Shown one piece after another: positions 6,281 to 50,502 of a stretch of DNA of 64,000 nucleotides; position 1 is the first letter of the stretch; each line of letters opens with the position of its first letter. The notes below the pieces were generated by a model. The model was not told where the DNA came from. It did not search any database and worked only from the letters and a program-made list of their open reading frames with translations. This stretch comes from Escherichia coli. GTDB taxonomy: Bacteria; Pseudomonadota; Gammaproteobacteria; Enterobacterales; Enterobacteriaceae. The stretch is from NCBI RefSeq assembly GCF_003334785.1, contig NZ_QOWV01000001.1. One strand, 5' to 3'. The position numbers were made by a program, and so were the translations under genes.

Positions 6281-6903
6281 CCCGGTGTGTGCAATATACG
6301 AAAAAAAAGCCCGTACTTTCGTACGAGCTCTTCTTTAAATATGGCGGTGAGGGGGGGATTGACTCGCTTCGCTCGCCCTGCGGGCAGCCCGCTCACTGCG
6401 TTCACGGTCTGTCCAACTGGCTGTCGCCAGTTGTCGAACCCCGGTCGGGGCTTCTCATCCCCCCGGTGTGTGCAATATACGAAAAAAAAGCCCGTACTTT
6501 CGTACGAGCTCTTCTTTAAATATGGCGGTGAGGGGGGGATTGACTCGCTTCGCTCGCCCTGCGGGCAGCCCGCTCACTGCGTTCACGGTCTGTCCAACTG
6601 GCTGTCGCCAGTTGTCGAACCCCGGTCGGGGCTTCTCATCCCCCCGGTGTGTGCAATATACGAAAAAAAAGCCCGTACTTTCGTACGAGCTCTTCTTTAA
6701 ATATGGCGGTGAGGGGGGGATTGACTCGCTTCGCTCGCCCTGCGGGCAGCCCGCTCACTGCGTTCACGGTCTGTCCAACTGGCTGTCGCCAGTTGTCGAA
6801 CCCCGGTCGGGGCTTCTCATCCCCCCGGTGTGTGCAATATACGAAAAAAAAGCCCGTACTTTCGTACGAGCTCTTCTTTAAATATGGCGGTGAGGGGGGG
6901 ATT
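6281..6903. repeat. Tandem direct repeat array: three perfect 181-bp units (starts 6281, 6462, 6643) plus a fourth partial unit running into the serX 3' end
   Basis: Identical text recurs with 181-bp period; each unit holds a copy of the last 19 nt of serX (plus strand tggcggtgagggggggatt) and the adjacent hairpin plus A/T-run terminator. Confidence 0.95.
6843..6876 (-). terminator. Rho-independent terminator immediately downstream of serX (copied in each repeat unit)
   Basis: On the tRNA strand: short spacer after CCA, hairpin (gctcgtac gaaa gtacgggc), then a run of 8 T. Confidence 0.75.
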
Positions 6904-6972
6904 CGAACCCCCGATACGTTGCCGTATACACACTTTCCAGGCGTGCTCCTTCAGCCACTCGGACACCTCACC
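6885..6972 (-). tRNA. serX: tRNA-Ser (long variable arm, 88 nt, CCA encoded)
   Basis: Reverse complement reads GGTGAGGTGTCCGAGTGGCTGAAGGAGCACGCCTGGAAAGTGTGTATACGGCAACGTATCGGGGGTTCGAATCCCCCCCTCACCGCCA; GGTTCGAATCC T-arm and GGA anticodon loop context. Confidence 0.93.
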
Positions 6973-7166
6973 AAATTGTCGTTCCTGTCTTGCTGGAACG
7001 GGCGCTAATTTAGGGAAATCATGACCTGAGGTCAACAAACTTTTTGAAAAAATCGCGCGTTTATTCAAACTTCAATCAATGTGTGGTTTTAATAAGCGAA
7101 ATCTGCTTTTTTTGCCACCGACCACGGATTTGTTATGCTGGTGGCCTTTGTAGATCATAATGATAA

Positions 7167-39492: not shown

Positions 39493-39519
39493 TTATCGGC
39501 AAGGGACGGGTAATCTTTA
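39493..39519 (-). promoter_or_regulatory. Sigma-28 (FliA) class 3 promoter for flgMN, just outside the 3' end of flgA
   Basis: Minus strand reads TAAAGATT-N11-GCCGATAA (consensus TAAAGTTT-N11-GCCGATAA). Confidence 0.8.
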
Positions 39520-39524
39520 ACAGC

Positions 39525-40184
39525 TTACAGGTTTATAAGAATATTCCCATCTGCATCAACAACGCCGCTGACTACCTGTCCCGATACCATGCGCACCCGC
39601 GCATTCTGTGCGACGGCTGCATTGTTCAGCGCCTGACCTTCTGCGTTGGCGCTAAACCCATCACCGCTGGCGATCACATTGACGCGTTGTCCCGCTTTTA
39701 CCCGCCATGCCTGGCGAAACTGGGTTAACTGGATAGGTTGATCGGGTGATAGATCGCGCAGGCTAATGGCATCAACAAGTTGATTGATATCCAGCACCGT
39801 ACGCGGTGGCAGGGTATCCAGCCGTCCGCGTTTCAGTTTGACATTGCCAGCTTCCAGCTTTCCTCCCCGCGCAATGGGCATCGCGGCAACCACATAATTT
39901 CCTGTGGCCTGTACATTAACCTGTAAATATCGTTTGTCGTTACCGCAGCGTGCCAACACATTCACATTGCCCCACAGGCGGGAATTATTGCTCATCGAAA
40001 GCAATGGCTGCTCGCATGGCGGTAGTAGATTGGGCGCTGTACGAATAGAAACACGAACCTCATCACTTACCCCCGCGAGTTGGGCGCTAAAAAAGTTGTG
40101 CAATTGCGATGTGAGATTGCTCGCCGTACTTAACGGACTGAACAGTATCGCGATGATCGCCACGCTACGTTTTATTATCAGCAT
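39525..40184 (-). CDS. flgA: Flagellar P-ring assembly chaperone FlgA
   Basis: 219-aa ORF with signal peptide. Confidence 0.95.
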   Translation of the reverse strand: MLIIKRSVAIIAILFSPLSTASNLTSQLHNFFSAQLAGVSDEVRVSIRTAPNLLPPCEQPLLSMSNNSRLWGNVNVLARCGNDKRYLQVNVQATGNYVVAAMPIARGGKLEAGNVKLKRGRLDTLPPRTVLDINQLVDAISLRDLSPDQPIQLTQFRQAWRVKAGQRVNVIASGDGFSANAEGQALNNAAVAQNARVRMVSGQVVSGVVDADGNILINL

Positions 40185-40338
40185 TTTCGCCCCCAGCCAT
40201 TTCTACAACGTGAATTGTACCTGTCCGCAATGACCATCAACGGCATAAATAGCGACCCATTTTGCGTTTATTCCGCCGATAACGCGCGCGTAAAGGCATT
40301 TAAGCTGATGGCAGAATTTTGATACCTGCGGAGGAGAT
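40185..40338. promoter_or_regulatory. Divergent flgA / flgB class 2 flagellar promoter region
   Basis: 154-bp gap between divergent flgA and flgB start codons; FlhDC-dependent promoters known here (established knowledge); individual sites not resolved. Confidence 0.7.
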
Positions 40339-40755
40339 ATGCTCGATAAGCTCGACGCCGCCTTACGTTTTCAACAAGAGGCGCTCAATCTGCGCGCCCA
40401 GCGTCAGGAAGTGCTGGCAGCAAACATCGCCAATGCCGATACCCCTGGTTATCAGGCGCGCGATATCGATTTTGCCAGTGAACTTAAAAAAGTCATGCAA
40501 CGTGGACGGGATGCAACCAGTGTGGTTGCACTGACGATGACCTCAACGCAACACATTCCGGCGCAGGCGCTGACGCCTCCTACCGCAGAACTGCAATACC
40601 GTATTCCGGACCAGCCTTCGCTTGACGGTAATACCGTCGATATGGATCGCGAACGCACCCAGTTTGCCGATAACAGCCTGCAATACCAGATGAGCCTTAG
40701 CGCGTTGAGCGGGCAAATCAAAGGCATGATGAACGTTTTACAGAGCGGAAATTAA
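40339..40755 (+). CDS. flgB: Flagellar basal-body rod protein FlgB
   Basis: 138-aa [27 protein letters not shown]... Confidence 0.96.
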
Positions 40756-40758
40756 CGG

Positions 40759-41163
40759 ATGGCACTGCTGAATATTTTTGATATCGCCGGGTCGGCGTTA
40801 ACTGCCCAGTCCCAGCGCCTGAACGTGGCGGCCAGTAATCTGGCGAATGCTGATAGCGTGACCGGTCCCGATGGACAGCCATATCGGGCAAAACAGGTGG
40901 TATTCCAGGTTAACGCTGCACCAGGTGCTGCGACAGGCGGCGTAAAGGTTGCCGATGTTATAGAAAGTCAGGCCCCGGACAAACTGGTTTATGAACCGGG
41001 TAATCCGCTGGCAGATGCAAAGGGCTACGTAAAAATGCCGAACGTTGATGTTGTCGGAGAGATGGTTAACACCATGTCGGCGTCACGCAGCTATCAGGCC
41101 AATGTTGAAGTGCTCAACACGGTGAAAAGCATGATGCTGAAAACCCTTACGCTCGGTCAATAA
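40759..41163 (+). CDS. flgC: Flagellar basal-body rod protein FlgC
   Basis: 134-aa [26 protein letters not shown]... Confidence 0.96.
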
Positions 41164-41174
41164 AGGAGAAAGCT

Positions 41175-41870
41175 ATGTCCATTGCGGTAACCACCACCGA
41201 TCCGACAAATACCGGCGTCAGTACCACCAGCAGTAGTTCGCTCACGGGCAGCAACGCCGCAGATTTACAAAGCAGTTTTCTGACTTTGCTGGTGGCGCAG
41301 CTGAAAAACCAGGACCCGACCAATCCAATGGAAAACAACGAGCTGACGTCGCAATTGGCACAAATCAGCACGGTCAGCGGGATTGAAAAACTCAATACCA
41401 CGCTCGGATCTATTTCCGGACAGATTGATAACAGCCAGTCGTTACAGGCCAGTAACCTGATCGGTCACGGCGTGATGATCCCCGGCACCACTGTTCTTGC
41501 GGGAACCGGCAGTGAAGAAGGGGCTGTGACCACGACCACGCCGTTTGGTGTTGAGCTGCAACAGGCGGCAGACAAAGTTACGGCCACCATCACCGATAAA
41601 AATGGCGCGGTTGTGCGCACCATTGATATTGGTGAACTGACCGCCGGAGTTCACAGTTTCACCTGGGACGGTACGTTGACTGATGGCAGCACTGCGCCGA
41701 ACGGTTCTTACAATGTAGCGATTAGCGCCAGTAACGGTGGTACACAACTGGTTGCCCAGCCGCTGCAGTTTGCTCTGGTGCAGGGTGTGATCCGCGGCAA
41801 CAGCGGTAATACGCTGGATCTCGGCACTTACGGCACCACCACCCTCGACGAAGTACGGCAGATAATTTAA
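41175..41870 (+). CDS. flgD: Flagellar hook capping/assembly protein FlgD
   Basis: 231-aa ORF, T/S-rich N-terminus. Confidence 0.96.
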   Translation: MSIAVTTTDPTNTGVSTTSSSSLTGSNAADLQSSFLTLLVAQLKNQDPTNPMENNELTSQLAQISTVSGIEKLNTTLGSISGQIDNSQSLQASNLIGHGVMIPGTTVLAGTGSEEGAVTTTTPFGVELQQAADKVTATITDKNGAVVRTIDIGELTAGVHSFTWDGTLTDGSTAPNGSYNVAISASNGGTQLVAQPLQFALVQGVIRGNSGNTLDLGTYGTTTLDEVRQII

Positions 41871-41894
41871 GCCTTCACATTTCAGGAGTCAGTC

Positions 41895-43103
41895 ATGGCC
41901 TTTTCTCAAGCGGTTAGCGGATTAAACGCTGCCGCCACCAACCTCGATGTTATTGGCAACAATATCGCCAACTCCGCCACCTACGGCTTTAAATCAGGCA
42001 CGGCCTCTTTTGCCGATATGTTTGCCGGTTCGAAAGTGGGACTGGGGGTAAAAGTTGCCGGTATCACTCAGGACTTTACCGATGGCACGACCACCAACAC
42101 CGGGCGAGGTCTGGACGTTGCTATCAGCCAGAACGGTTTTTTCCGTCTGGTAGACAGCAACGGTTCGGTGTTCTACAGCCGTAACGGACAATTTAAGCTG
42201 GATGAAAACCGTAACCTGGTGAATATGCAAGGTTTACAGCTGACGGGTTACCCGGCAACCGGTACGCCGCCGACTATTCAGCAAGGGGCGAATCCGACCA
42301 ATATTTCGATCCCGAATACCCTGATGGCAGCGAAAACTACCACCACGGCATCGATGCAGATCAACCTGAATTCCAGTGATCCGCTTCCTACTGTTACGCC
42401 ATTCAGCGCCAGCAATGCGGATAGCTATAACAAAAAAGGTTCGGTGACTGTTTTCGACAGTCAGGGTAATGCTCATGACATGAGCGTCTACTTTGTGAAG
42501 ACCGGGGATAATAACTGGCAGGTCTACACCCAGGATAGCAGTGATCCAAACAGCATTGCGAAGACAGCGACAACACTGGAATTTAATGCTAATGGCACAT
42601 TAGTGGATGGTGCGATGGCGAATAATATCGCAACCGGCGCAATTAACGGTGCAGAACCCGCCACGTTTAGTCTGAGCTTCCTCAACTCCATGCAGCAAAA
42701 TACCGGCGCTAACAATATTGTGGCAACCACCCAGAACGGCTACAAACCGGGCGATCTGGTGAGTTATCAAATCAATGATGACGGTACGGTTGTCGGCAAC
42801 TATTCCAACGAACAAACCCAACTGCTGGGGCAGATTGTACTGGCGAACTTTGCCAACAACGAAGGTCTGGCATCCGAAGGCGACAACGTCTGGTCTGCGA
42901 CGCAATCTTCTGGCGTGGCGCTGTTGGGGACAGCCGGGACGGGAAACTTTGGCACCCTGACCAACGGTGCGCTGGAAGCGTCCAACGTCGATCTCAGTAA
43001 AGAACTGGTCAATATGATCGTTGCCCAGCGTAACTATCAGTCTAACGCCCAGACCATCAAAACCCAGGACCAGATCCTCAACACGCTGGTTAACTTACGC
43101 TAA
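41895..43103 (+). CDS. flgE: Flagellar hook protein FlgE
   Basis: 402-aa ORF MAFSQAVSGLNAAATNLDVIGNNIANS... Confidence 0.96.
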   Translation: MAFSQAVSGLNAAATNLDVIGNNIANSATYGFKSGTASFADMFAGSKVGLGVKVAGITQDFTDGTTTNTGRGLDVAISQNGFFRLVDSNGSVFYSRNGQFKLDENRNLVNMQGLQLTGYPATGTPPTIQQGANPTNISIPNTLMAAKTTTTASMQINLNSSDPLPTVTPFSASNADSYNKKGSVTVFDSQGNAHDMSVYFVKTGDNNWQVYTQDSSDPNSIAKTATTLEFNANGTLVDGAMANNIATGAINGAEPATFSLSFLNSMQQNTGANNIVATTQNGYKPGDLVSYQINDDGTVVGNYSNEQTQLLGQIVLANFANNEGLASEGDNVWSATQSSGVALLGTAGTGNFGTLTNGALEASNVDLSKELVNMIVAQRNYQSNAQTIKTQDQILNTLVNLR

Positions 43104-43122
43104 TCGCTGACGGGATAGCTCA

Positions 43123-43878
43123 ATGGATCACGCAATTTATACCGCGATGGGAGCAGCCAGCCAGACACTGAATCAACAGGCGGTAACCGCCAGTAATCTG
43201 GCCAATGCCTCAACGCCCGGTTTTCGCGCGCAGTTGAATGCTTTACGCGCGGTGCCAGTGGAAGGGCTTTCTCTGCCCACGCGCACGTTGGTCACGGCGT
43301 CAACGCCGGGCGCAGATATGACGCCCGGCAAAATGGATTACACCTCGCGCCCGCTGGACGTCGCGTTGCAGCAGGATGGCTGGCTGGCCGTGCAGACCGC
43401 TGACGGCAGCGAAGGGTATACGCGTAATGGCAGCATTCAGGTTGATCCCACCGGGCAACTGACAATTCAGGGGCATCCGGTGATAGGCGAGGCTGGGCCA
43501 ATTGCTGTGCCGGAAGGGGCGGAAATCACTATTGCTGCCGATGGCACAATCTCGGCGCTCAATCCGGGCGATCCGGCAAATACGGTTGCGCCAGTAGGGC
43601 GTCTTAAACTGGTGAAAGCCACGGGCAGCGAAGTGCAGCGCGGTGACGACGGCATTTTTCGTTTAAGCGCAGAAACCCAGGCCACGCGTGGGCCGGTACT
43701 GCAGGCAGATCCAACCTTGCGTGTGATGTCGGGGGTTCTGGAAGGCAGTAACGTCAATGCCGTTGCGGCAATGAGCGACATGATTGCCAGCGCGCGGCGT
43801 TTTGAAATGCAGATGAAGGTGATCAGCAGCGTCGATGATAACGCAGGCCGTGCCAACCAACTGCTGTCGATGAGTTAA
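43123..43878 (+). CDS. flgF: Flagellar proximal rod protein FlgF
   Basis: 251-aa ORF MDHAIYTAMGAASQTLNQQAV... Confidence 0.96.
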   Translation: MDHAIYTAMGAASQTLNQQAVTASNLANASTPGFRAQLNALRAVPVEGLSLPTRTLVTASTPGADMTPGKMDYTSRPLDVALQQDGWLAVQTADGSEGYTRNGSIQVDPTGQLTIQGHPVIGEAGPIAVPEGAEITIAADGTISALNPGDPANTVAPVGRLKLVKATGSEVQRGDDGIFRLSAETQATRGPVLQADPTLRVMSGVLEGSNVNAVAAMSDMIASARRFEMQMKVISSVDDNAGRANQLLSMS

Positions 43879-43905
43879 TTGAAAGGATACATGACAAGTA
43901 TAAGT

Positions 43906-44010
<105 letters not shown>

Positions 44011-44031
44011 ACATATGCACTTTGTCACTAA

Positions 44032-44832
<801 letters not shown>

Positions 44833-44884
44833 GGCTTAACCGGTGGCAGGTTCACCGGTTTACTGATTTTTGAAGATGATAGCC

Positions 44885-45583
44885 ATGCAAAAAAACGCTG
44901 CGCATACTTATGCCATTTCCAGCTTGTTGGTGCTTTCACTAACCGGCTGCGCCTGGATACCCTCCACGCCGCTGGTGCAGGGGGCGACCAGTGCACAACC
45001 GGTTCCCGGTCCGACGCCCGTCGCCAACGGTTCTATTTTCCAGTCTGCTCAGCCGATTAACTATGGCTATCAACCGCTGTTTGAAGATCGTCGACCACGC
45101 AATATTGGCGATACGCTGACCATCGTGTTGCAGGAGAACGTCAGCGCCAGCAAAAGCTCCTCTGCGAATGCCAGCCGTGACGGTAAAACTAATTTTGGCT
45201 TTGATACTGTGCCGCGCTATTTGCAGGGGCTGTTTGGTAACGCTCGTGCCGATGTCGAAGCCTCCGGTGGTAACACGTTCAACGGAAAGGGCGGGGCCAA
45301 TGCCAGCAATACCTTTAGCGGCACGTTGACGGTGACGGTTGACCAGGTACTGGTCAACGGCAACCTGCATGTGGTGGGTGAAAAACAGATTGCCATTAAT
45401 CAGGGTACCGAATTTATTCGCTTCTCTGGCGTGGTTAATCCACGCACTATCAGCGGCAGCAATACCGTACCGTCTACTCAGGTGGCGGATGCGCGCATTG
45501 AATACGTAGGCAATGGCTACATTAACGAAGCGCAAAATATGGGCTGGTTGCAGCGTTTCTTCCTTAACCTGTCGCCAATGTAA
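44885..45583 (+). CDS. flgH: Flagellar L-ring lipoprotein FlgH
   Basis: ORF 44870..45583 trimmed to ATG 44885 ([22 protein letters not shown], lipobox), 232 aa. Confidence 0.93.
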
Positions 45584-45594
45584 GTGAGGCTGTG

Positions 45595-46692
45595 GTGATT
45601 AAATTTCTCTCTGCATTAATTCTTCTACTGGTCACGACGGCGGCTCAGGCTGAGCGTATTCGCGATCTCACCAGTGTTCAGGGGGTAAGGCAAAACTCAC
45701 TGATTGGCTATGGTCTGGTGGTGGGGCTGGATGGCACCGGTGACCAGACAACCCAGACGCCGTTTACCACACAAACGCTTAATAACATGCTCTCACAGCT
45801 GGGAATTACCGTTCCGACGGGCACCAATATGCAGCTAAAAAACGTCGCTGCGGTAATGGTGACAGCGTCACTTCCTCCGTTTGGACGTCAGGGGCAAACC
45901 ATCGATGTGGTGGTTTCTTCCATGGGAAATGCCAAAAGCTTGCGTGGAGGTACGTTGTTGATGACACCGCTTAAGGGCGTTGACAGTCAGGTGTATGCGC
46001 TGGCGCAGGGCAATATTCTGGTTGGCGGCGCAGGAGCCTCCGCTGGCGGTAGCAGTGTTCAGGTTAACCAACTGAACGGTGGACGGATCACCAATGGTGC
46101 GGTTATTGAACGTGAATTGCCCAGCCAGTTTGGCGTCGGGAATACCCTTAATTTGCAACTTAACGACGAAGATTTCAGCATGGCGCAGCAAATCGCTGAC
46201 ACCATCAACCGCGTGCGTGGATATGGCAGCGCCACCGCGTTAGATGCGCGGACTATTCAGGTGCGCGTACCGAGTGGCAACAGTTCCCAGGTCCGCTTCC
46301 TTGCCGATATTCAGAATATGCAGGTTAATGTCACCCCGCAGGACGCTAAAGTAGTGATTAACTCGCGCACCGGTTCGGTGGTGATGAATCGCGAAGTGAC
46401 CCTCGACAGCTGCGCGGTAGCGCAGGGGAATCTCTCAGTAACAGTTAATCGTCAGGCCAATGTCAGCCAGCCAGATACACCGTTTGGTGGTGGACAGACT
46501 GTGGTTACTCCACAAACGCAGATCGATTTACGCCAGAGCGGCGGTTCGCTGCAAAGCGTACGTTCCAGCGCCAGCCTCAATAACGTGGTGCGCGCGCTCA
46601 ATGCGCTGGGCGCTACGCCGATGGATCTGATGTCCATACTGCAATCAATGCAAAGTGCGGGATGTCTGCGGGCAAAACTGGAAATCATCTGA
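45595..46692 (+). CDS. flgI: Flagellar P-ring protein FlgI
   Basis: GTG start at 45595 ([19 protein letters not shown] signal peptide), 365 aa; the ORF track begins one GTG codon earlier. Confidence 0.9.
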
Positions 46693-47633
46693 TGATCAGC
46701 GACAGCAAACTACTGGCAAGTGCGGCCTGGGATGCGCAATCACTCAACGAACTAAAGGCGAAAGCGGGCGAAGATCCGGCGGCAAATATCCGTCCGGTGG
46801 CCCGTCAGGTGGAAGGGATGTTCGTGCAGATGATGTTGAAAAGCATGCGCGACGCTTTACCAAAAGATGGCCTGTTCAGCAGCGAGCACACTCGCCTGTA
46901 TACCAGTATGTATGACCAGCAGATTGCCCAACAGATGACGGCGGGCAAAGGTCTGGGGCTTGCAGAGATGATGGTTAAACAGATGACGCCAGAACAACCA
47001 TTGCCAGAGGAGTCCACGCCAGCAGCACCGATGAAATTCCCGCTCGAAACTGTGGTGCGTTATCAAAATCAGGCGCTTTCGCAGCTGGTGCAAAAGGCCG
47101 TGCCACGTAACTACGATGATTCGCTGCCGGGTGACAGTAAAGCATTCCTCGCGCAACTCTCGCTGCCCGCCCAACTGGCAAGCCAGCAAAGCGGTGTGCC
47201 ACATCATTTGATCCTCGCTCAGGCGGCACTGGAATCTGGTTGGGGGCAACGGCAAATCCGCCGCGAAAACGGCGAGCCGAGCTATAACCTGTTTGGTGTC
47301 AAAGCCTCTGGCAACTGGAAAGGGCCAGTTACTGAAATCACCACGACTGAATATGAAAACGGCGAAGCGAAGAAAGTAAAAGCGAAGTTTCGCGTCTACA
47401 GCTCGTATCTGGAAGCCTTGTCGGATTACGTTGGGCTGTTAACGCGTAACCCGCGCTACGCCGCCGTGACGACCGCCGCGAGTGCGGAACAGGGGGCGCA
47501 GGCCCTACAGGACGCGGGCTATGCCACCGATCCTCACTATGCCCGCAAACTCACCAACATGATTCAGCAGATGAAATCGATAAGCGACAAGGTGAGCAAA
47601 ACCTACAGTATGAACATTGATAATCTGTTCTGA
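46692..47633 (+). CDS. flgJ: Flagellar rod-assembly protein / peptidoglycan hydrolase FlgJ
   Basis: ORF 46662..47633 trimmed to ATG 46692 ([22 protein letters not shown]...), 313 aa; start overlaps flgI stop by 1 nt. Confidence 0.93.
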   Translation: MISDSKLLASAAWDAQSLNELKAKAGEDPAANIRPVARQVEGMFVQMMLKSMRDALPKDGLFSSEHTRLYTSMYDQQIAQQMTAGKGLGLAEMMVKQMTPEQPLPEESTPAAPMKFPLETVVRYQNQALSQLVQKAVPRNYDDSLPGDSKAFLAQLSLPAQLASQQSGVPHHLILAQAALESGWGQRQIRRENGEPSYNLFGVKASGNWKGPVTEITTTEYENGEAKKVKAKFRVYSSYLEALSDYVGLLTRNPRYAAVTTAASAEQGAQALQDAGYATDPHYARKLTNMIQQMKSISDKVSKTYSMNIDNLF

Positions 47634-47638
47634 ATAAC

Positions 47639-47665
47639 TCAAGTCCGGCGGGTCGCTGCCGATAA
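47639..47665 (+). promoter_or_regulatory. Candidate sigma-28 class 3 promoter upstream of flgKL
   Basis: GCCGATAA at 47658-47665 with tcaagtcc 11 bp upstream (5/8 match to TAAAGTTT), about 35 nt before the flgK ATG. Confidence 0.65.
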
Positions 47666-47698
47666 TACTCTGTAATTGAAGGCTTATAAGGAACCTCC

Positions 47699-49342
47699 AT
47701 GTCCAGCTTGATTAATAACGCCATGAGCGGACTGAACGCGGCCCAGGCGGCGTTAAATACGGCAAGTAATAATATCTCCAGCTATAACGTTGCCGGATAT
47801 ACCCGCCAAACCACTATTATGGCGCAGGCCAATAGCACGTTGGGCGCTGGCGGCTGGGTTGGCAATGGTGTCTACGTTTCTGGTGTGCAGCGTGAGTATG
47901 ATGCGTTTATTACCAACCAGTTACGTGCGGCGCAGACGCAAAGTAGCGGTCTGACTGCCCGCTATGAGCAGATGTCGAAAATCGACAATATGCTCTCCAC
48001 CAGTACCTCTTCGCTGGCAACACAGATGCAGGATTTCTTCACCAGCCTGCAAACGCTGGTGAGTAACGCGGAAGACCCGGCAGCGCGCCAGGCGCTGATT
48101 GGGAAATCAGAAGGATTGGTGAATCAGTTTAAAACCACCGATCAATATCTGCGCGACCAGGACAAACAGGTCAATATCGCGATAGGTGCCAGCGTTGATC
48201 AGATCAACAACTACGCTAAACAAATTGCCAGCCTGAACGATCAAATCTCGCGCCTGACAGGCGTGGGGGCAGGGGCGTCACCTAACAATCTGCTGGATCA
48301 ACGCGATCAACTGGTGAGCGAATTAAACCAGATTGTTGGTGTAGAAGTCAGCGTTCAGGATGGCGGCACTTATAACATCACGATGGCCAATGGTTACTCA
48401 CTGGTTCAGGGAAGTACGGCGCGGCAACTGGCGGCAGTTCCTTCCAGCGCTGACCCTTCTCGTACGACTGTCGCTTATGTTGATGGGACGGCAGGCAATA
48501 TTGAGATCCCGGAGAAATTACTGAATACCGGGTCGCTGGGCGGCATTCTGACATTCCGTTCTCAGGATCTGGACCAGACGCGTAATACGCTTGGACAACT
48601 GGCGCTGGCATTTGCCGAGGCTTTCAACACCCAACACAAAGCCGGATTTGATGCTAACGGCGATGCCGGTGAAGATTTCTTTGCTATCGGTAAGCCCGCG
48701 GTTCTGCAAAACACGAAAAACAAAGGTGACGTTGCGATCGGTGCCACGGTAACTGATGCCTCCGCGGTACTGGCGACAGATTACAAAATCTCGTTCGATA
48801 ATAATCAGTGGCAGGTCACCCGCCTTGCCAGCAATACCACTTTTACGGTGACGCCGGATGCCAACGGTAAAGTGGCATTTGATGGTCTGGAGTTGACGTT
48901 TACAGGAACGCCTGCCGTTAACGACAGCTTCACGCTGAAACCAGTAAGTGACGCCATCGTCAACATGGATGTATTAATCACCGACGAAGCGAAAATAGCG
49001 ATGGCGAGCGAAGAAGATGCGGGTGATAGCGATAACCGCAACGGTCAGGCCCTGCTGGATCTGCAAAGCAACAGTAAAACGGTGGGCGGTGCGAAATCCT
49101 TTAACGACGCTTATGCCTCGTTAGTGAGTGATATCGGTAATAAAACCGCGACGTTGAAAACCAGTAGCGCCACGCAAGGTAATGTGGTGACGCAGCTTTC
49201 CAATCAGCAGCAGTCGATTTCCGGTGTCAATCTCGATGAGGAGTACGGAAATCTGCAACGTTTTCAGCAGTATTACCTGGCGAATGCGCAGGTTCTGCAG
49301 ACGGCAAACGCGATTTTTGATGCGCTGATTAACATTCGCTAA
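47699..49342 (+). CDS. flgK: Flagellar hook-associated protein 1 FlgK
   Basis: 547-aa ORF MSSLINNAMSGLNAAQAALNTASNNISSYNVAGYTRQ... Confidence 0.96.
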   Translation: MSSLINNAMSGLNAAQAALNTASNNISSYNVAGYTRQTTIMAQANSTLGAGGWVGNGVYVSGVQREYDAFITNQLRAAQTQSSGLTARYEQMSKIDNMLSTSTSSLATQMQDFFTSLQTLVSNAEDPAARQALIGKSEGLVNQFKTTDQYLRDQDKQVNIAIGASVDQINNYAKQIASLNDQISRLTGVGAGASPNNLLDQRDQLVSELNQIVGVEVSVQDGGTYNITMANGYSLVQGSTARQLAAVPSSADPSRTTVAYVDGTAGNIEIPEKLLNTGSLGGILTFRSQDLDQTRNTLGQLALAFAEAFNTQHKAGFDANGDAGEDFFAIGKPAVLQNTKNKGDVAIGATVTDASAVLATDYKISFDNNQWQVTRLASNTTFTVTPDANGKVAFDGLELTFTGTPAVNDSFTLKPVSDAIVNMDVLITDEAKIAMASEEDAGDSDNRNGQALLDLQSNSKTVGGAKSFNDAYASLVSDIGNKTATLKTSSATQGNVVTQLSNQQQSISGVNLDEEYGNLQRFQQYYLANAQVLQTANAIFDALINIR

Positions 49343-49353
49343 GGGGAGATAAG

Positions 49354-50307
49354 ATGCGTTTCAGTACACAGATGATGTACCAGCAAAACATGCGTGGTAT
49401 CACCAATTCTCAGGCAGAATGGATGAAGTACGGCGAACAGATGTCGACGGGTAAGCGAGTCGTTAACCCTTCTGACGATCCCATTGCTGCATCACAAGCC
49501 GTAGTTCTCTCCCAGGCACAGGCGCAAAACAGCCAGTACACGCTGGCGCGTACTTTCGCCACTCAAAAAGTGTCACTGGAAGAGAGTGTACTTAGCCAGG
49601 TCACCACTGCTATCCAGAATGCTCAGGAAAAAATTGTCTACGCCAGCAATGGCACCTTGAGTGACGATGACCGGGCCTCGCTGGCTACGGATATTCAGGG
49701 GCTTCGTGACCAGTTGCTGAATCTGGCAAACACCACTGACGGTAACGGGCGCTACATTTTTGCCGGTTATAAAACAGAGACTGCGCCGTTTAGCGAAGAG
49801 AAAGGGAAATACGTCGGTGGAGCAGAAAGTATTAAACAACAGGTCGATGCTTCGCGTTCGATGGTGATAGGGCACACGGGTGACAAAATTTTCGACAGTA
49901 TTACCAGCAACGCGGTAGCGGAACCAGACGGTAGCGCTTCTGAAACCAATCTTTTTGCCATGCTGGATAGTGCCATCGCAGCCCTGAAAACGCCGGTCGC
50001 GGATAGCGAAGCGGATAAAGAAACCGCCGCTGCGGCGTTAGATAAAACCAACCGCGGACTGAAAAACTCGCTGAACAATGTGCTGACTGTTCGCGCGGAA
50101 TTAGGCACGCAGCTGAACGAACTGGAGTCGCTGGATTCATTAGGTAGCGATCGCGCTTTAGGGCAAACGCAGCAGATGAGCGATCTGGTTGATGTGGACT
50201 GGAATGCAACTATTTCATCTTACATCATGCAGCAAACGGCATTGCAGGCATCGTATAAAGCATTTACCGATATGCAGGGATTGTCGCTCTTCCAGCTCAG
50301 CAAATAA
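49354..50307 (+). CDS. flgL: Flagellar hook-associated protein 3 FlgL
   Basis: 317-aa ORF MRFSTQMMYQQNMRGITNSQAEW... Confidence 0.96.
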   Translation: MRFSTQMMYQQNMRGITNSQAEWMKYGEQMSTGKRVVNPSDDPIAASQAVVLSQAQAQNSQYTLARTFATQKVSLEESVLSQVTTAIQNAQEKIVYASNGTLSDDDRASLATDIQGLRDQLLNLANTTDGNGRYIFAGYKTETAPFSEEKGKYVGGAESIKQQVDASRSMVIGHTGDKIFDSITSNAVAEPDGSASETNLFAMLDSAIAALKTPVADSEADKETAAAALDKTNRGLKNSLNNVLTVRAELGTQLNELESLDSLGSDRALGQTQQMSDLVDVDWNATISSYIMQQTALQASYKAFTDMQGLSLFQLSK

Positions 50308-50451
50308 TTTCGCTTTAAAACATATCATGAAACTGGGTATGTTTTGTCTGCCTGCTCTGGGATCGCTGGGGCGGGCATTTTTTTGCCTATTTTGCATTGT
50401 TGGTTAGCAAGGATGCCATTCGATGAATTTTAATATGTTGATTCAAAGATG

Positions 50452-50483
50452 AAATAAAAAAGCCCTGGCAGTTACCAGGGCTT
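50452..50483 (-). terminator. Rho-independent terminator after rne (convergent with the flgKL end)
   Basis: agccctggtaactgccagggct hairpin followed on the minus strand by tttttta. Confidence 0.75.
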
Positions 50484-50502
50484 GATTACTTTGAGCTAAT
50501 TA

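Follow-up and report, generated by a model that had tools for sequence, protein, structure and literature searches.

The two sequence motifs studied here, one between flgA and flgM and the other between flgJ and flgK of Escherichia coli, are almost certainly PflgM and PflgK, the FliA (sigma-28) class 3 promoters of the E. coli flagellar regulon. Both are already documented and experimentally characterised promoters, and the sole new element of the present analysis is a modest one: the two promoters carry distinct -35 variants, and this difference is fixed across the order. The motifs were found in a 64,000-nt stretch of E. coli DNA (hereafter the window, in whose coordinates all positions are given) by an initial annotation made from the letters alone, which described a near-consensus sigma-28 promoter for flgMN and a weaker one before flgK. 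The flgMN promoter is the top FliA match of the whole window, the flgKL promoter is established by its position, by experiment and by conservation, and both lie directly behind class 2 operons that read through into them.

Results

Gene setting and layout of the two promoters

The flg block of the window (36321-55321, 19 kb) is base-identical to that of E. coli K-12 MG1655, and the experimental data obtained with K-12 therefore apply to the DNA examined here. In this region, the NC_000913.3 coordinate equals the window position + 1,090,679. The window as a whole is not strictly MG1655, as 13 SNPs (e.g., A replacing G at 35428 in rimJ) and a single 1-nt gap distinguish its first 36 kb (1-36321), and a further SNP is found at 57065 in plsX. 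Gene identities were taken from the list of open reading frames together with the RefSeq annotation, and the FlhDC peak was placed by applying the offsets +776 and 1090679 to the position 1130152 reported in NC_000913.2 (PMC4183435 Table 1). The features are collected in Table 1.

Table 1 Features of the flgMN and flgKL promoter regions, with one motif seen in other genera (last line, in the coordinates of the respective loci).
Feature	Position	Strand	Remark
flgN CDS	38735..39151	-	FlgK/FlgL export chaperone; co-transcribed with flgM
flgM CDS	39156..39449	-	anti-sigma-28 factor, 97 aa
flgM class 3 5' leader	39450..39484	-	36-37 nt including +1
flgM class 3 start (+1 used in the literature)	39485..39486	-	7-8 nt past the last A of the -10
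flgMN class 3 promoter, -10 element GCCGATAA	39493..39500	-	GC extended -10 + core
flgMN class 3 promoter, 11-nt spacer ACCCGTCCCTT	39501..39511	-	
flgMN class 3 promoter, -35 element TAAAGATT	39512..39519	-	
flgA CDS	39525..40184	-	opens the class 2 flgAMN operon, which reads through into flgM
flgA-flgB divergent class 2 control region	40185..40338		FlhDC ChIP peak near 40249
flgKL class 3 promoter, -35 element TCAAGTCC	47639..47646	+	
flgKL class 3 promoter, -10 element GCCGATAA	47658..47665	+	11-nt spacer between the elements
Predicted flgK class 3 start	47672..47674	+	from the 7-9 nt spacing and the 18-22 bp rule
flgK and flgL CDSs	47699..50307	+	hook-filament junction proteins
FlgO sRNA with the flgKL intrinsic terminator	50307..50384	+	annotated in NC_000913.3
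Putative intra-flgK FliA motif, Erwinia/Pantoea	L064 12066-12093; L065 12050-12077; L078 12038-12065		

The sigma-28 motif for flgMN had been placed just 3' of flgA, and this is where it lies: its -35 element begins 5 nt past the flgA stop codon (TAA at 39527-39525). The distance to flgM, first given as ~45 nt, was measured as 43 nt from the -10 to the ATG at 39449, and the minus strand running from the promoter toward flgM reads ctgTAAgctgtTAAAGATTacccgtcccttGCCGATAAataagcAAcacatg...ATG. Compared with the consensus TAAAGTTT-N11-GCCGATAA, the flgM site has one mismatch in 16 positions, located in the -35; its -10 is fully matched, and its spacer measures 11 nt. The flgK site is arranged in the same manner. 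Its -35 also begins 5 nt past a stop codon, that of flgJ (TGA at 47631-47633), and 33 nt separate its -10, again perfect and again preceded by an 11-nt spacer, from the flgK ATG at 47699; the mismatches amount to three in 16, all of them in the -35.

A terminator scan of 39449-39527 and 47631-47699 gave no hairpin resembling a terminator on the strand concerned. The strongest plus-strand terminator of the region is the one behind flgKL, with a 12-bp stem at 50349-50377 followed by a T-run, and a convergent bidirectional hairpin is present at 50460-50483, just past the rne stop codon. The flgKL terminator belongs to the small RNA FlgO, for which sigma-28 dependence and processing out of the flgL 3'UTR were reported (PMC10578931); this dependence would presumably act through PflgK. 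The FlgO region matched no Rfam family at the gathering threshold, and the Rfam scan of the flg cluster returned no matches. Elsewhere in the window, the segment 6281-6904 (minus strand), downstream of the serX tRNA gene (6886-6973), consists of three tandem copies with a 181-nt period that are 99-100% identical by self-BLAST, and each copy gives the same borderline Rfam match to RtT (46.3 bits versus a gathering score of 45).

Transcription starts

For flgM, a start 7-10 nt past the -10 had been expected, and the +1 used in the literature falls at 7-8 nt. The flgM fusion of Romilly et al. (2020) spans "+1 to 105" and ends after codon 23, which corresponds to a 36-nt leader and a +1 at 39485, and their flgM 5'UTR primers start with AACACATG / AACACATGATAAAAGCG, i.e., at window position 39486 (PMC7549644); this +1 was adopted, not mapped, by these authors. 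The spacing matches the open-complex structure of Pseudomonas aeruginosa sigma-28, in which GCCGATAA is numbered -15 to -8. A distance of 18-22 bp from the motif centre to the start was described in a preprint for flagellar FliA promoters, and this rule was used along with the spacing to predict the flgK start listed in Table 1. The accessible papers contained no mapped flgK start, and no start was found in the Cappable-seq supplements (PMC4782308) searched with coordinate prefixes in both genome versions or in the SMRT-Cappable-seq supplements searched by gene name.

FliA binding and expression on identical DNA

Both sites are bound by FliA in vivo and in vitro. The FliA ChIP-seq table (PMC4183435 Table 2) contains the two 28-mers verbatim, TAAAGATTACCCGTCCCTTGCCGATAAA for flgMN with a FAT of 48 and TCAAGTCCGGCGGGTCGCTGCCGATAAT for flgKL with a FAT of 47, and a later correction to that paper changed only a footnote, leaving the flgMN and flgKL rows unaffected. 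Genomic SELEX with the reconstituted sigma-28 holoenzyme gave values of 15.0 at flgA/flgM and 27.2 at flgJ/flgK (PMC5493296). The proposed sigma-28 promoter between flgA and flgM is listed in the ChIP-seq table, bound in vitro and, as described below, kept in 73/73 loci. The second promoter, before flgK, had been located exactly, and ChIP, in-vitro binding and conservation agree on it.

The label "weaker" given to the flgK site fared less well. It is correct as a count of consensus positions, but binding does not follow this order, as ChIP occupancy is practically equal and SELEX favours flgK. The RNA does not follow it either, because deletion of fliA lowered flgK (318 to 138) more than flgM (451 to 318), although neither change was significant in the RNA-seq data (PMC4183435). 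Promoter strength ranked by consensus count is thus contradicted by the binding data. In a follow-up preprint, 15/20 intergenic lacZ fusions were FliA-dependent and the exceptions named or implied were fliA, fliD, fliL, pntA, and cvrA; by elimination from these five, the flgM and flgK fusions were presumably active.

The same RNA-seq study separates the two sources of transcript. In cells without FlhD, flgAMN RNA collapsed from 319 to 3, and when FliA was overexpressed in the flhD deletion, flgM and flgK were back to wild-type levels or above (PMC4183435). Overlapping flgAMN/flgMN operons were reported, and RT-PCR across the flgJ-flgK junction was positive (PMC4183435). Because the drop in the fliA deletion is modest, most of the flgM and flgK transcript in liquid culture would come from the class 2 promoters. 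The initial annotation also held that transcription from the class 2 flgA promoter continues into flgM, and this is supported by the lack of a terminator, the collapse in the flhD deletion and the overlapping operons. Its remark that both promoters fit the flagellar hierarchy was sound as well, as the dual class 2/class 3 picture is the textbook one.

Given these RNA levels, one may ask whether the two sites are genuine FliA promoters that yield little transcript in ordinary growth and play a conditional role, such as the repair of sheared filaments, swarming or the fine-tuning of FlgM after hook completion. The RNA-seq data on the fliA deletion, with little effect on dual-regulated genes despite strong occupancy, speak for such a role, as does the requirement of the Salmonella class 3 flgKL and fliDST promoters for swarming and filament repair (Wozniak 2010, as summarised in PMC4183435). 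On the other hand, the strict conservation of the promoters throughout the order argues that they matter. We regard the conditional role as a minority view that nevertheless deserves attention; it qualifies the physiological weight of the promoters and is no true rival on their identity as PflgM and PflgK.

Motif scores within the window

To score the motifs, we used a 28-column position weight matrix (PWM) built from 23 FliA ChIP-seq sites with a FAT >4 (Fitzgerald et al. 2014), from which flgMN and flgKL were left out. When the whole window was scanned for FliA promoters, the flgM site was exceptional: at 27.5 bits it was the top match on both strands of the 64 kb, and this score was reached in 0/200 random windows. 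The flgK site was recovered in the same scan, but its 16.3 bits placed it at rank 4 and within the range of random windows, being equalled by the best match of 48/200. When the search was restricted to the 65-nt flgJ-flgK spacer, a Markov model put the P of the flgK match at ~4e-5 to 1e-4, a calculation made post hoc. The flgM promoter is therefore callable from sequence alone and the flgK promoter is not, since two better-scoring sites of the window are unbound. The reality of the flgK site rests on its position, on experiment and on conservation.

One of these two sites lies inside flgD (41573-41600, plus strand, CAAAGTTACGGCCACCATCACCGATAAA, 17.9 bits) and has no peak in the published FliA ChIP table; the other is antisense to pabC (63209-63236, minus strand, TACAGAATTGTCGCATAATGCCGTTAAC, 17.7 bits), and no ChIP peak was reported for it. 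Outside E. coli, the codons of the flgD look-alike (~aa 133-134, ...TITDK) score 16.6-21.8 bits only in E. albertii, Citrobacter, and Siccibacter, and the match seems to be a side effect of the conservation of the coding sequence. The 8-mer GCCGATAA itself is over-represented in the window, with 10 copies versus 2.1 expected from dinucleotide shuffles. Most copies are coding, and the excess is probably an effect of codon structure (Ala-Asp-Lys/Asn or Pro-Ile frames), not a sign of extra promoters.

Two further candidates in the cluster were rejected. A copy of GCCGATAA at 40275-40282 (plus strand), in the flgA-flgB spacer and 56 nt upstream of the flgB ATG, stands without a -35 and scores 10.9 bits; the flgB upstream regions of other species are negative as well, and FliA overexpression cannot rescue flgB in the flhD deletion (PMC4183435). 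In the flgF-flgG spacer (43879-44049) the best PWM score was just 4.4 bits. At 171 nt this spacer is exceptionally long, and a REP-like palindrome, GCCGGATAAGGCGTTTACGCCGCATCCGGC, lies in it; it coincides with a 6.7-fold peak in the genomic SELEX with sigma-28 holoenzyme (PMC5493296).

Conservation across Enterobacterales

We compared 80 flg loci from ~35 genera, taken from species-representative genomes with FlgG as the anchor and ranging from Citrobacter and E. albertii to Yersinia, Erwinia, Xenorhabdus, and Edwardsiella; Salmonella is not among them. Fourteen flg genes were located by tblastn, and the sense strand upstream of their start codons was scored with the leave-out PWM. Within 120 nt upstream, the median best score was 23.0 bits for flgM and 18.5 bits for flgK, and at least 15 bits were reached in 90% and 82% of the loci, respectively. 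The medians of the 12 control flg genes ranged from -1.8 to 5.6 bits and 15 bits were essentially never reached, so that among the 14 genes a FliA motif is found upstream of flgM and flgK only. When the range was extended to 400 nt, flgM had at least 15 bits in 73/73 loci and flgK at least 12 bits in 75/77, and the controls stayed low except for flgN, whose upstream region includes the flgM promoter. In the 2.26 Mb scanned, 142 of the 166 matches of at least 15 bits were flgM or flgK promoters.

Conservation is concentrated in the two elements. With one sequence per genus (34 genera), the mean information content per column was 1.57-1.65 bits in the -35 and 1.71 (flgM) and 1.81 bits (flgK) in the -10, compared with 0.17-0.35 bits in the spacers (0.35 for flgM) and 0.29-0.44 bits in the flanks. 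The flgMN spacer is thus fixed in length and not conserved in sequence. The position of the flgM promoter is also retained, with its -35 located 4-6 nt past the flgA stop codon in 58/73 species. The distance from the flgM -10 to the ATG varies, being 43 nt in E. coli and E. albertii, ~60 nt in most other Enterobacteriaceae and ~90 nt in Serratia, Photorhabdus, and Xenorhabdus; the class 3 leader of flgM is therefore ~17 nt shorter in Escherichia than in most of the family. Inside flgK of Erwinia/Pantoea species (~aa 435), the sense strand carries a strong FliA motif (19.7-22.4 bits) that E. coli lacks and that may act as an intragenic promoter, specific to this lineage, upstream of flgL.

These data bear on the idea that the flgK match resembles a FliA site by chance and that all expression of flgKL comes from the end of the class 2 flgB-L transcript. 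The frequency of its score among random windows, the two unbound sites that score higher and the non-significant effect of the fliA deletion on flgK RNA could all be cited in its favour, but the FliA ChIP signal is centred on the flgK motif, holoenzyme SELEX enriches it 27.2-fold, FliA restores flgK in the flhD deletion, and 75/77 species have the site in the same place with its elements conserved and its spacer free. We consider a chance origin extremely improbable, and in effect already refuted. Still less credible is the notion that the motifs serve another sigma factor or overlapping sigma-70 promoters, because the single weak sigma-70 match that overlaps the flgM -35 (TTAACA-17-AATATT, 39517-39545, opposite strand) points away from flgM, the sigma-70 scan gave 8 matches where 10.9 are expected by chance, conservation falls exactly on the columns of the sigma-28 elements, and FliA was the factor used in ChIP and SELEX.

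Distinct -35 variants of PflgM and PflgK

The two promoters differ at position 2 of the -35. All 73 orthologous flgM loci have A there (TAAAG), and 74/75 species have C in the flgK element (TCAAG), the exception being Edwardsiella with T. The C departs from the A of the consensus of the Ptar/PfliC type. Because this non-consensus C is near-invariant beside a spacer that is free to vary, it is a fixed feature of the flgK promoter, not the result of decay or drift.

The pattern of substitution suggests, as a possibility that we take seriously but hold somewhat short of probable, that TCAAG is a selected, promoter-specific setting and that the distinct -35 variants have been frozen across Enterobacterales. 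Alternatively, the flgK element might sit in a context where C is as good as A for region 4 of sigma-28. Tuning and equivalence of C and A would each agree with the equal ChIP occupancy and with the stronger binding of flgK in vitro. In Pseudomonas, TCAAG may be the usual -35 of FliA promoters, a point on which the argument does not rely. The text of a P. putida preprint does not mention TCAAG as a FliA -35, and the -35 is TCTAAAG in the P. aeruginosa sigma-28 structure paper.

Discussion

PflgM and PflgK can be placed in a simple model. In the sigma-28 RNA polymerase, region 4 reads TAAAGATT or TCAAGTCC and regions 2 and 3 read GCCGATAA across a fixed 11-nt spacer, and transcription would begin ~7-8 nt downstream of the -10. 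Each promoter is positioned 5 nt past the last stop codon of an FlhDC-activated class 2 operon (flgA in one case and flgB-J in the other), with no terminator between. Since the promoters stand at terminator-free ends of class 2 operons, flgMN and flgKL are made twice. The first round occurs while the hook-basal body is being built, when flgMN and flgKL are transcribed as the tails of the class 2 transcripts, and the second from their own promoters, after the completed hook-basal body has exported FlgM and so freed sigma-28. In the case of flgM, this arrangement forms a negative feedback in which sigma-28 promotes production of the factor that inhibits it. PflgK, with the help of FlgN made from flgMN, supplies the junction proteins independently of FlhDC, and the flgKL transcript would also yield the 3'UTR-derived sRNA FlgO.

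The promoters of the window and the E. coli K-12 flgMN and flgKL promoters described by Fitzgerald, Bonocora and Wade (2014; PMC4183435) are the same DNA, with no difference. The flgMN and flgKL class 3 promoters of Salmonella enterica (Gillen and Hughes 1993; Kutsukake and Ide 1995; Wozniak et al. 2010), as far as they are presented in PMC4183435 and PMC8527033, which cite this work, have the same dual class 2/class 3 overlapping operons and an orthologous position. In the close relatives Citrobacter and Enterobacter, the flgM leader is ~17 nt longer than that of E. coli. Ptar and PfliC share the two elements and the 11-nt spacing, Ptar being a perfect TAAAGTTT-N11-GCCGATAA, but these promoters depend on FliA alone (251 to 0 and 2319 to 11 upon deletion of fliA), whereas flgM and flgK are dual and barely drop.

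The pair also provides a calibration for the reading of such motifs: a sigma-28 motif with one mismatch can be called from the sequence, and one with three mismatches needs position, conservation or experiment. If the TCAAG element is indeed a selected setting, it might tune the strength or the timing of the synthesis of the junction proteins and FlgO relative to that of FlgM. As for PflgM and PflgK themselves, they link the expression of flagellar genes to the assembly of the flagellum, which is established biology.
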